Shown here: positions 1 to 7,961 of the stretch, piece after piece | Layout: every line of letters starts with the position of its first letter | Position numbering within the stretch: position 1 is the stretch's first letter | Assembly: GCF_003334405.1 (NCBI RefSeq) | Contig: NZ_QOWM01000007.1 | From: Escherichia coli | Lineage (GTDB): Bacteria > Pseudomonadota > Gammaproteobacteria > Enterobacterales > Enterobacteriaceae | Length of the DNA stretch: 64,000 nt | Direction: 5' to 3' (one strand) | Notes under the pieces: generated by a model | Seen by the model: only the letters and a program-made list of their open reading frames with translations | What the model was told of the DNA's origin: nothing | The model's database searches: none | Made by a program: the position numbers and the translations under genes

Positions 1-62
1 TTTTTCGTCTTGCGACGTTAAGAATCCGTATCTTCGAGTGCCCACACAGATTGTCTGATAAA

Positions 63-75
63 TTGTTAAAGAGCA
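63..75 (-). promoter_or_regulatory. rrn leader boxA antiterminator element (rrnC leader; 16S gene lies beyond window start)
   Basis: minus-strand reads TGCTCTTTAACAA, the rrn boxA consensus, downstream of rrn P2. Confidence 0.8.
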
Positions 76-104
76 GTGCCGCTTCGCTTTTTCTCAGCGG
101 CGCG

Positions 105-142
105 GGGTGTGCATAATACGCTTTCCCGCTACAGAGTCAAGC
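105..142 (-). promoter_or_regulatory. rRNA operon promoter P2
   Basis: minus-strand -35 TTGACT (135-140) and -10 TATTAT (113-118), 16-nt spacer; matches rrn P2 sequence. Confidence 0.8.
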
Positions 143-225
143 ATTTATTTTTGCTTTCTCTGCCGGAGTTCTCAGGAGAACCCCGCTGACCCGGCGGCGT
201 GTTTGCCGTTGTTCCGTGTCAGTGG

Positions 226-285
226 TGGCGCATTATAGGGAGTTATTCCGGCCTGACAAGAGGAAATTTAAAATAATTTTCTGAC
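226..285 (-). promoter_or_regulatory. rRNA operon promoter P1 with A/T-rich UP element
   Basis: minus-strand -35 TTGTCA (254-259), -10 TATAAT (232-237), 16-nt spacer, UP element AGAAAATTATTTTAAATTTCCT immediately upstream (262-285). Confidence 0.85.
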
Positions 286-411
286 CGCGCATTTTTTCAG
301 CAAAAGCCCCGTTAATGTGCCATAAAACAAGCAATTTGCCGTTTTTGCAACCGTAATCACACTTCCTGGTGGCATACTAAGGAGGAATAAAAAGAAAAAG
401 GAAGATAAGTA

Positions 412-1104
412 ATGCCTTTAAGCGCACAACAGTTAGCTGCACAGAAAAACCTTTCGTATGTTCTGGCTGAGAAGCTGGCGCAACGGATCTTAAAAGGTGA
501 ATATGAACCCGGCACCATTTTGCCCGGTGAGATTGAGCTGGGCGAGCAATTTGGAGTGAGTCGTACAGCGGTACGCGAAGCGGTCAAAACGTTAACGGCA
601 AAAGGGATGGTTTTACCGCGACCGCGAATTGGTACTCGGGTCATGCCACAATCGAACTGGAATTTTCTTGATCAGGAATTGCTTACCTGGTGGATGACAG
701 AAGAGAACTTTCATCAGGTCATCGATCACTTTCTGGTTATGCGTATCTGTCTGGAGCCGCAAGCCTGCCTACTGGCAGCAACGGTTGGCACCGCGGAACA
801 GAAAGCGCATCTCAATACGTTAATGGCCGAAATGGCGGCATTAAAAGAGAACTTTCGCCGTGAACGCTGGATCGAAGTCGATATGGCCTGGCATGAGCAT
901 ATCTATGAAATGAGCGCCAATCCGTTTTTGACCTCATTCGCCTCGCTATTCCATTCGGTTTATCACACTTACTTCACGTCAATTACCAGCGACACAGTGA
1001 TAAAGCTGGATCTGCATCAGGCGATTGTCGATGCGATTATCCAAAGCGATGGCGACGCGGCATTTAAAGCTTGTCAGGCGCTGCTACGCTCACCTGATAA
1101 GTGA
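412..1104 (+). CDS. yieP: GntR/FadR-family transcriptional regulator YieP
   Basis: 230-aa ORF; N-terminal wHTH (VSRTAVREAVKTL); position next to hsrA and rrnC as in K-12. Confidence 0.9.
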   Translation: MPLSAQQLAAQKNLSYVLAEKLAQRILKGEYEPGTILPGEIELGEQFGVSRTAVREAVKTLTAKGMVLPRPRIGTRVMPQSNWNFLDQELLTWWMTEENFHQVIDHFLVMRICLEPQACLLAATVGTAEQKAHLNTLMAEMAALKENFRRERWIEVDMAWHEHIYEMSANPFLTSFASLFHSVYHTYFTSITSDTVIKLDLHQAIVDAIIQSDGDAAFKACQALLRSPDK

Positions 1105-1126
1105 TAACCCGATAACAGGACATTGA

Positions 1127-2554
1127 ATGAGCGATAAAAAGAAGCGCAGTATGGCGGGTTTGCCGTGGATCGCGGCGATGGCCTTCTTCATGCAGGCACT
1201 TGATGCCACTATTCTTAATACCGCCTTACCCGCAATCGCTCATAGCCTTAATCGTTCTCCTCTCGCGATGCAATCAGCCATCATCAGTTATACGCTGACG
1301 GTGGCGATGCTTATTCCGGTAAGCGGATGGCTAGCCGATCGCTTCGGTACGCGTCGCATTTTTACCCTTGCCGTGAGTCTGTTCACATTGGGTTCTCTGG
1401 CCTGCGCACTTTCTAATTCGCTACCACAGCTGGTTGTCTTCCGGGTTATTCAGGGGATAGGCGGCGCAATGATGATGCCTGTTGCTCGGCTGGCCTTACT
1501 GCGCGCTTATCCTCGTAATGAACTTCTTCCAGTATTGAATTTTGTCGCCATGCCGGGTCTGGTGGGGCCAATTTTAGGCCCCGTTCTTGGCGGCGTGCTG
1601 GTCACCTGGGCAACCTGGCACTGGATATTTTTAATCAATATCCCCATAGGTATTGCGGGCCTTCTTTACGCGCGCAAACATATGCCCAATTTCACCACCG
1701 CACGACGCAGATTCGATATCACTGGCTTTTTGCTGTTTGGCCTCAGCCTTGTTCTCTTCTCAAGCGGAATAGAGCTATTCGGGGAAAAGATTGTCGCCAG
1801 CTGGATTGCCTTGACGGTAATTGTCACCAGCATCGGGTTACTGCTTCTCTATATTCTCCATGCACGACGCACGCCAAACCCATTAATTTCATTAGATTTA
1901 TTTAAAACCCGCACTTTCTCGATCGGTATCGTAGGCAATATTGCAACCCGTCTGGGGACCGGCTGTGTACCGTTCCTTATGCCATTGATGTTACAGGTAG
2001 GATTTGGTTATCAGGCGTTTATTGCTGGCTGTATGATGGCACCGACAGCGTTAGGTTCCATTATTGCAAAATCGATGGTTACCCAAGTCTTACGTCGTCT
2101 GGGCTATCGCCATACGTTAGTGGGGATCACGGTGATTATTGGGCTAATGATCGCTCAGTTCTCTTTGCAATCACCAGCAATGGCTATATGGATGCTGATC
2201 TTGCCGTTGTTTATATTAGGGATGGCTATGTCGACGCAGTTTACCGCGATGAATACCATCACACTTGCCGATCTGACCGATGACAATGCCAGCAGCGGTA
2301 ACAGTGTTCTGGCGGTCACGCAGCAACTGTCGATTAGTTTAGGCGTTGCTGTAAGTGCGGCCGTCCTTCGCGTTTATGAAGGAATGGAAGGCACAACGAC
2401 TGTCGAACAATTCCACTATACGTTTATCACAATGGGCATTATTACTGTTGCTTCAGCAGCAATGTTCATGCTTCTGAAAACAACCGATGGTAATAATTTG
2501 ATCAAAAGACAGCGTAAATCTAAGCCGAACCGCGTTCCATCAGAATCGGAGTAA
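1127..2554 (+). CDS. hsrA: MFS (DHA2-type) efflux transporter
   Basis: 475-aa ORF, multi-TM hydrophobic profile, MFS motifs; synteny. Confidence 0.9.
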
Positions 2555-3512
2555 GTTGTAATCGTTGTTGCTGAAGGGTCGGCTGGGTTATCCGATGGAT
2601 GAGTACATCAATCGCCAGCTCCCCCAGTTCATCTTTCGGTTGGTGGATAGTGGTTAATGGTGGCGTCATAAAGCTTGCCAGTTCGATATCGTCATAGCCA
2701 ATCACCGCGATATCCTGCGGAACCTGTAACTCTGCCTGATATAACGCCTGGTAAACGCCAACAGCCATAGCGTCATTTCCGGTAAAGACGGCCTGAGGAC
2801 GCAGCGGATGTGATAGCAGTTGGCGCATAGCGTCAAACCCGCCGTTAAATTCAAAATCACCAGTGACTTCATAGCCATCAGGAATGTTGAGACCCGCACG
2901 TTTCATCGCCGCCCGATAACCTTCCAACCGCAGGCGCGCCGGAGTTTTATCCAGCGGGCCGGTAATACAGGCGATACGGGTATGACCTTTATCGATCAGA
3001 TATTGCGTTGCTAAGTCTCCGCCCAGCAACGAGTTATCCTGAATAAGATCGCTGTCGCCATCGAACGGAGCCCAGTCCATCATCACAGTAGGCACTGTCG
3101 GATAACGTTGCATGATTTCACGCGAAGGTTGATGCGTTTCGGTGCACAGTAACAGCAAGCCATCAACGCGTTTTTGCATCAGCGTTTCCAGATTGCGATT
3201 CATCCGCTGTTCATCGCCTTCGGTATTGCAAAGGACGAGACTATAACCGCGTTCGAAGCAGCTGCGTTCAACGCCACGCACCAGTTCTGAATAGAAAGGA
3301 TTGGTACTGGCAGTGATCAACATGCCAATGGTATGTGTTTGATTGAGTTTGAGGCTACGCGCCAGAGCTGATGGCGCGTAATTGAGTTCTTTAATCGCCG
3401 CTTCAACTTTGGCGGTAATCGCTTCACTGACGAAGCGATCTTTATTGATAACGTGAGAAACTGTTGAGGTAGAAACGCCCGCCAGGCGGGCAACATCTTT
3501 CATTGTAGCCAA
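2520..3512 (-). CDS. rbsR: ribose operon repressor, LacI family
   Basis: 330-aa ORF; N-terminal LacI-type HTH ([24 protein letters not shown]); last gene of rbs cluster. Confidence 0.95.
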
Positions 3513-6455: not shown

Positions 6456-7961
6456 TTACTCCTGATTCACGCGATTAAGCTTGCCCACAGCGGCAGCCAT
6501 TAACACTTCCTGGGTGGCCTGCTCACGAGTAAATTCCCCGCTGAGATGCCCTTCATGCATGACGATGATGCGATCGCTCATGCCTAATACTTCTGGCATC
6601 TCCGATGACACCAGAATGATGCTCAAGCCATCGGCTTTGAACTGGTTAATCAGTTGATAGATCTCTTTTTTCGCGCCGACATCTACGCCACGGGTAGGTT
6701 CATCAAGGATCAACACTTTGGGGCGTGTCATCAGACCGCGGGCAATCGCCACTTTTTGCTGATTGCCACCGGAAAGCAGACCAATTGCCTGTTCCATCGA
6801 CGGAGTTTTCACATTAAACAGACGAATGAAATCACTCACAGCCTGCTGTTCATCGGCATGCTTCAAACTGCCGCCAGCGCGGCTGAAGTAGCGCAGCGCT
6901 GTCAGCGACATGTTCTCTTTTACTGACATGCCCAACACTAAACCGTCACGTTTACGGTCTTCGGAGATATACACAATGCCGTTTGCCAGGCCATCCTGCG
7001 GTGAACGGGTAACGACTTCATGCCCATCCAGGGTGACGTAACCGCTGGTGCGCGGTAGTGCGCCGTAGAGCACTTTCATCAGTTCGGTACGACCTGCGCC
7101 CATCAAACCAGAGACGCCAAGAATTTCGCCTTTGCGTAAAGTAAAAGAGACATCGTTAACGCCAGGTCCGCAGAGATTATCGACTTTCAGGCGGATATCT
7201 CCCGGCGCTTTGTCCAGGTGCGGATATTGATCTTCCAGCTTGCGACCCACCATCATCTCAATCAGCGAATCTTCGGTCAGTGATGCCACTTCGCGCTCAG
7301 CAATAAATTGCCCATCACGAAAAACGGTAACGTCATCGCAAATCTCGAAGATTTCTTTCATGCGGTGGGAGATATAGACAATACCGCGGCCTTGCGATTT
7401 CAGCTCGCGGATGACGCGGAACAGGGATTCGGTTTCGGTATCGGTCAGCGCATCGGTCGGTTCATCCATAATGATGACTTTCGACTCAAAGCTCAGCACT
7501 TTGGCGATTTCAACCATTTGCTGGTCACCGATGGAAAGATCGCCCACCAGCTTGTCGCTTTTAAAGCGCAGGTTAAGTTTAGCCAGCAATTTATCCGCTT
7601 CGGCATACATGGTTTTCCAGTCAATTTTGCCAAAGCGATTAACAAACTCACGACCGAGGAAAATGTTTTCGGCAATGGTCAACTGCGGGATCAGGTTCAG
7701 TTCCTGATGGATAATCCCAATCCCGGCTTCCTGGGAAGATTTTGGCCCGGTAAATGTCGTTTCTTTCCCCAGCCATAAAAGCGTACCGGCATCGCGAGTA
7801 TAGATGCCAGTAAGCACTTTCATCATGGTGGATTTACCCGCGCCGTTTTCGCCCACCAGCGCCATCACGCGGCCCGGATAGACATTTAACGCTGCGCCCG
7901 AGAGGGCTTTTACGCCCGGGAAGGCTTTATCGATGCCTTTAAGCTGAAGTAATGCTTCCAT
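6456..7961 (-). CDS. rbsA: ribose ABC transporter ATPase (duplicated NBD)
   Basis: 501 aa; two Walker A motifs ([18 protein letters not shown]) and ABC signature LSGGNQQK. Confidence 0.95.

Follow-up and report, generated by a model that had tools for sequence, protein, structure and literature searches.

Positions 1 to 301 of the analysed DNA, read on the minus strand, are with a probability of about 97 % the control region of the rrnC ribosomal RNA operon of Escherichia coli. The whole analysed stretch, which we call the window, is 64,000 nucleotides long, and its positions 1-420 on the minus strand run from the complement of the yieP start codon (ATG at 412) to the window edge. A consensus scan of positions 1-1200 yielded two promoter-like sites and no more. 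Both lie on the minus strand, and shuffled sequences gave 1.1 ± 0.9 such sites. We read these two sites as the P1 and P2 promoters of the operon, and the features of the region, given in the direction of rRNA transcription, are as follows.

318-332, no strand assigned: 15-mer GCTTGTTTTATGGCA resembling Fis site II, with its centre at -102 from the P1 start (+1), 10 of 11 consensus positions
287-301, no strand assigned: 15-mer GCTGAAAAAATGCGC resembling Fis site I, with its centre at -71 from the P1 start, 10 of 11 specified consensus positions
261-282, minus strand: UP element AGAAAATTATTTTAAATTTCCT, 22 nt, A+T-rich, found by exact string match, -59 to -38 from the P1 start
232-259, minus strand: rrnC P1 core promoter, -35 TTGTCA at 259-254, 16-bp spacer, -10 TATAAT at 237-232, scan score 11/12
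223-231, minus strand: G+C-rich P1 discriminator GCGCCACC at 231-224 and predicted start A at 223, sequence identical to rrnB P1
1-223, minus strand: transcribed rrnC leader from the P1 start, incomplete in the window, with 69 further leader nt before the 16S gene
113-140, minus strand: rrnC P2 core promoter, -35 TTGACT at 140-135, 16-bp spacer, -10 TATTAT at 118-113, scan score 10/12
78-101, minus strand: boxB hairpin GCCGCT ... AGCGGC, arms at 101-96 and 83-78, a predicted stem in the RNA fold of positions 106-36
63-75, minus strand: boxA TGCTCTTTAACAA, 13 nt, exact match, invariant across the seven K-12 operons
41-50, minus strand: boxC TCTGTGTGGG (core TGTGTGGG at 48-41), exact match to UCUGUGUGGG of PMC10250234
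19-61, minus strand: 5′ strand of the 16S leader-trailer helix (RNase III processing stem), leader positions -130 to -88, the partner lying after the 16S gene and outside the window

An earlier reading of this DNA made from the sequence alone (the sequence-only reading) had proposed a P1 promoter with the hexamers TTGTCA and TATAAT and an UP element, a P2 promoter with TTGACT and TATTAT, and a boxA antiterminator at the window edge. All of these were recovered, P1 and P2 by the scan at 259..232 and 140..113, the UP element as a string at 282-261 and boxA as the exact 13-mer at 75-63, its only copy in the window. Since the 60 positions of the segment 223-282 are all identical to K-12 rrnB (60/60, as they are to rrnA and rrnC of the same strain), we place the P1 start by analogy at A223, nine bases after the -10 hexamer, with the discriminator at 231-224. 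In rrnB P1 the UP element lies at -60 to -40 and is bound by the alpha-CTDs of RNA polymerase, the G+C-rich discriminator occupies -8 to -1, transcription starts nine bases downstream of the -10 hexamer, and ATP is the initiating nucleotide (PMC7822876).

The start of P2 would fall at about 106-105 on the minus strand. The -10 hexamers of the two promoters are 119 bp apart, which fits the spacing of approximately 120 bp between P1 and P2 described for all seven operons (PMC4696680). Within the -10 and start region of P2 (TATTATGCACACC), the 9-mer TTATGCACA at 108-116 on the minus strand fits the DnaA-box pattern TTATNCACA. This is probably a coincidence, since chance alone should yield about 1.9 such matches in the window. 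A 43-aa open reading frame on the plus strand (107-238), which runs antisense to the P1-P2 spacer, was also considered and rejected, because nothing supports that it is coding.

The promoters and the leader are shared among several rrn operons, and the assignment to rrnC is supported by the sequence upstream of the promoters, by synteny and by the position of the 16S gene. The 129 bp upstream of the UP element are identical to K-12 rrnC at all 129 positions, whereas the other six operons match at only 25-50 of them (46-50 for rrnA and rrnB, 34 for rrnG). As this operon-specific segment matches rrnC alone, the operon is rrnC. On the window side, the rrn promoters are adjoined by yieP, hsrA and rbsR, according to both the open reading frame list and the RefSeq annotation of identical DNA. 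The assignment to rrnC that the sequence-only reading had made from synteny was thus confirmed by the full identity of the upstream segment, by the yieP-hsrA-rbsR neighbourhood and by the layout of 16S and tRNA genes in identical genomes.

At the larger scale, the entire window corresponds to positions 3,877,739-3,941,738 of K-12 MG1655 in reverse complement. The two sequences are colinear and 99.984 % identical, with no indels and 10 mismatches (window positions 85, 4887, 11413, 12762, 19584, 31830, 39043, 52035, 52872 and 58387). The window contains the rrnC promoter region, yieP, hsrA, rbs, kup, ravA-viaA, asnA/C, mioC, oriC, mnmG, rsmG, atp, glmUS, pst, bgl, tna, mnmE, yidC, rnpA, rpmH, dnaA, dnaN, recF and gyrB. 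Over positions 1-1939, which cover the rrnC promoters, yieP and part of hsrA, 1,938 of the 1,939 bases agree with K-12, the sole difference being position 85, and many E. coli chromosomes are 100 % identical to the window over positions 1-1200. Used as a query, this 1200-bp segment had matches in every one of the 5,426 complete E. coli genomes; the median was 7 places per genome, as many as there are rrn operons. We counted the yieP-rrn junction as present where one place covered at least 80 % of the query; this was the case in 5,401 of the 5,426 genomes, and 25 had no such place.

No rRNA or tRNA gene was found in the 64-kb window, and the Rfam search at gathering level detected no rRNA there, in agreement with the sequence-only reading, which had described a control region with no rRNA gene. 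The same reading expected the 16S gene about 100 nt beyond position 1 and had staked its interpretation on finding one within about 300 bp to the left of the window. In genomes that are 100 % identical over positions 1-1200, and likewise in K-12, the 16S 5′ end AAATTGAAGAGTTTGATCATGGCTCAG does lie there, well inside that limit, but it begins 70 nt to the left of position 1, closer than the expected distance. In one such genome (locus L001), window positions 1-1200 on the minus strand are identical to locus positions 6501-7700 and the 16S gene is annotated from 7770. In strain 6409, which is identical over positions 1-1200, the RefSeq annotation continues with 16S, tRNA-Glu, 23S, 5S, tRNA-Asp and tRNA-Trp, followed by hdfR, and this order of RNA genes is the layout of rrnC. 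From these identical and near-identical genomes we infer that the source genome carries its 16S gene next to position 1 as well.

The leader downstream of P2 carries the antitermination elements in the order boxB, boxA, boxC. The boxA 13-mer occurs once in 64 kb, and 0.11 occurrences with at most one mismatch would be expected. The boxC sequence does not vary among the seven K-12 operons or among the seven diverse E. coli rrnC alleles compared. The part of the leader assigned to the processing stem (-130 to -88) pairs with the 16S trailer of L001 at a predicted -56.4 kcal/mol, against -18.5 ± 3.5 kcal/mol for shuffled trailers. Folded in isolation, the leader is not unusually stable (z = -1.3), and we did not count this against the reading because the main partner of the leader is the distant trailer. 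The boxB, boxA and boxC elements and the role of the leader-trailer helix are described in PMC10250234.

Compared with K-12 rrnC, the region upstream of rrsC (b3756), the window has the same yieP-rrsC intergenic region over its whole length, the same neighbours and the same orientation save for a single base. This base lies in the boxB loop, where the window carries G at position 85 and K-12 rrnC carries A. The G is common to K-12 rrnA, rrnB and rrnG and to all six other E. coli rrnC alleles aligned, so it is K-12 rrnC, with its A, that deviates. In the alignment of the seven K-12 operons, the leader, P2, the P1-P2 spacer, P1 and the UP element of the window recur near-exactly in rrnA and rrnB and largely in rrnG. 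For both rrnA and rrnB, positions 1-282 differ from the window at a single base, which lies in the P2 segment 106-145. The identity to rrnB extends over positions 1-291 (to about -68 of P1) with the same kind of exception (39/40 in 106-145), and it spans the UP element, the -35 and -10 hexamers, the discriminator, the start region, the P2 hexamers and boxB, boxA and boxC. Above about -68, the Fis-site region is operon-specific, and only 50 of 129 positions of rrnB agree with the window. The surroundings differ too, since rrnB has murI upstream in the same direction as the operon, whereas rrnC has the divergent yieP.

To follow variation within rrnC, the window was aligned with six diverse alleles of this operon from E. 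coli. Across these seven alleles no change occurs in the -35 and -10 hexamers of P1 and P2, in the discriminator, in boxA and boxC or in the extended -10 element of yieP, and the P2 hexamers are also invariant in the K-12 operon alignment. The UP element varies only in its first base, which is changed from A to G in one allele. Differences between the alleles cluster in the P1-P2 spacer, immediately before the -35 hexamer of P2, and in boxB, with a few scattered positions elsewhere. The hot spot in the spacer lies at about 145-170 on the minus strand, where the strains EC20017429 and M1 (L014 and L015) carry the rrnG-type sequence …GAATCTCAAC… at rrnC, which suggests gene conversion between rrn operons.

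Several other explanations of the same signals have to be weighed. The near-identity among operons leaves room for the idea that the promoters are those of rrnA, rrnB or rrnG, because positions 1-282 differ from K-12 rrnA and rrnB by just one base in 106-145 and position 85 carries the G of rrnA, rrnB and rrnG in place of the A of K-12 rrnC. The segment beyond the UP element, however, matches rrnC at 129 of 129 positions and none of these three operons at more than 50. The one-base difference in the P2 segment has the base of rrnC, unlike rrnA, rrnB and rrnG, the flanking genes are yieP, hsrA and rbsR, and all 64 kb are colinear with the rrnC-oriC-dnaA region of K-12. The flanking sequence refutes this explanation, which we consider the least probable of those discussed here, with practically no chance of being correct. 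Only marginally better is the prospect of an orphan promoter, left behind in a source genome that had lost the rrnC structural genes by deletion or rearrangement, and driving either nothing or some other sequence. The window ends 70 nt before the expected 16S start, in 25 of the 5,426 complete genomes no place covers 80 % or more of positions 1-1200, recombination between rrn operons is known, and some strains have rrnG-type spacer alleles at rrnC. Against this, the junction is kept in 5,401 of 5,426 genomes, the 100 % identical genome that was examined has the full operon, and the window is 99.98 % K-12-like without indels, so such a loss is extremely unlikely.

A very small, slightly larger chance goes to a separate small RNA of the type known in Rfam as Ysr197, which would overlap the rrn leader or be processed from it and have its own function. 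The model RF02849 (Ysr197, Yersinia 'sRNA 197') does match window positions 304-53 on the minus strand over its full length, with 83.2 bits and E = 3e-20. This score is nevertheless far below the gathering threshold of 167, the match starts 81 bp upstream of the P1 start, and we found no evidence of a separate function. Moreover, the consensus of the model itself includes boxA, the complete P2 promoter and the -10 hexamer and discriminator of P1, so that RF02849 looks like a model of the Yersinia rrn promoter and leader rather than of a separate sRNA. The full-length alignment covers the P1 -10 hexamer, P2, boxB and boxA, and the family does not count the E. coli region among its curated members. 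The Rfam search at gathering level gave nothing in positions 1-400, and a permissive search returned only this sub-threshold match.

Elsewhere in the window, the only matches at Rfam gathering level are STnc410 at 26298-26455 on the minus strand (188 bits), located between atpC and glmU and opposite in strand to both, and AsdA at 58520-58600 on the minus strand (102 bits), which is antisense to dnaA. By coordinate transfer from the colinear K-12 chromosome, oriC is located at 15,764-15,995, and three DnaA boxes of the pattern TTATNCACA cluster at 15750-15758, 15824-15832 and 15930-15938. A further box of this pattern is present at 57792-57800, upstream of dnaA. The position of oriC fits the distance of approximately 16 kb reported between rrnC and oriC in a study that also describes rrnC as the sole rrn operon not colocalising with the others (PMC5110994).

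How the control region would work can be outlined from the literature on rrnB and other rrn operons. RNA polymerase with sigma-70 would initiate at P1 with +1 at 223. [quoted passage not shown] P2, about 118 nt downstream of P1, would supply basal transcription. In the nascent leader, boxB, boxA and boxC would assemble the Nus/S4/SuhB antitermination complex, and leader nucleotides -130 to -88 would later pair with the sequence after the 16S to form the RNase III stem. The binding of NusB/NusE, NusA, NusG, S4 and SuhB and the resistance to Rho termination are proposed here from the identity of the leader with those of rrnB and rrnG.

Regarding Fis itself, the two 15-mers listed above are the two best matches to the degenerate Fis consensus upstream of the UP element. 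Their centres at -71 and -102 coincide with the positions of Fis sites I and II of rrnB P1. Matches to the consensus are not enriched here (4 versus 3.7 in shuffled sequences), and the consensus is too degenerate to be significant alone. Taking their position together with the literature, we propose both as candidate Fis sites. Hirvonen et al. (2001) reportedly footprinted Fis on all seven rrn P1 promoters. For the cloned rrnC promoter, binding of Fis in gel shifts, stimulation by Fis as judged from reporter assays in a fis mutant, and promoter activity have been published (PMC4696680).

On the other side of this region, transcription leaves in the opposite direction towards yieP, for which we list the following features.

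370-385, plus strand: yieP promoter, extended -10 TGgCATACT (TG at 370-371, hexamer at 373-378) and transcription start at 385, from published 5′ RACE and a motif read from the sequence
412-1104, plus strand: yieP coding sequence, a GntR/FadR-family regulator, from the open reading frame list and the RefSeq annotation of identical DNA
1127-2554, plus strand: hsrA, 22 bp after yieP, from the same two sources

The yieP transcription start was mapped by 5′ RACE 27 nt upstream of the ATG (PMC11340327), which with the ATG at 412 puts it at window position 385. Seven bases upstream of this start lies the hexamer CATACT, preceded by TGg (370-372). Two consensus scans found no good sigma-70 pair of -35 and -10 hexamers for yieP on the plus strand, the best matches in one of them reaching 8/12 at irrelevant places, and the mapped start instead implies a promoter of the extended -10 type whose -35 is poor. 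A strong Shine-Dalgarno-like AAGGAGG at 379-385 ends exactly at the transcription start, and the working ribosome-binding site of yieP is a weaker one, GGAAG, located some 8 nt ahead of the ATG. In the 5′ UTR, position 407 is T in the window and in K-12 and A in the six other alleles aligned. Further downstream, hsrA converges with rbsR (2520-3512, minus strand), and their 3′ ends overlap by 35 bp (2520-2554), as in the K-12 annotation.

The sequence-only reading had also pointed out that the yieP promoter shares a divergent region with a very strong Fis-activated promoter, and as a matter of geometry this holds. The yieP transcription start and the +1 of rrnC P1 (385 and 223) stand back to back 162 bp apart, and the yieP core promoter occupies about -127 to -162 of rrnC P1. 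With this separation, the yieP core promoter falls inside the region of the rrn P1 Fis sites. The 5′ RACE study also reports that YieP regulates its own gene positively and gives a ChIP signal upstream of yieP (PMC11340327). One might speculate that rrnC is the only rrn operon in which a local regulator, YieP, modulates the activation by Fis, and that, conversely, yieP-hsrA is coupled to the growth rate via Fis and via negative supercoiling from the divergent P1; we regard this as a long shot.

The rrnC control region described here is already known and is one base away from the K-12 reference, so there is nothing new in it, and it carries little weight as a discovery, since rrn P1 and P2, the UP element, activation by Fis and boxA antitermination are among the best-studied control regions in bacteria. 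Both the mapped yieP promoter and its autoregulatory site lie in the Fis region of rrnC P1, a very strong promoter that diverges from yieP. For the window as a whole, the rrnC control region explains the strong promoter signals without a gene at its edge and anchors it as the rrnC-oriC-dnaA segment of the E. coli chromosome.
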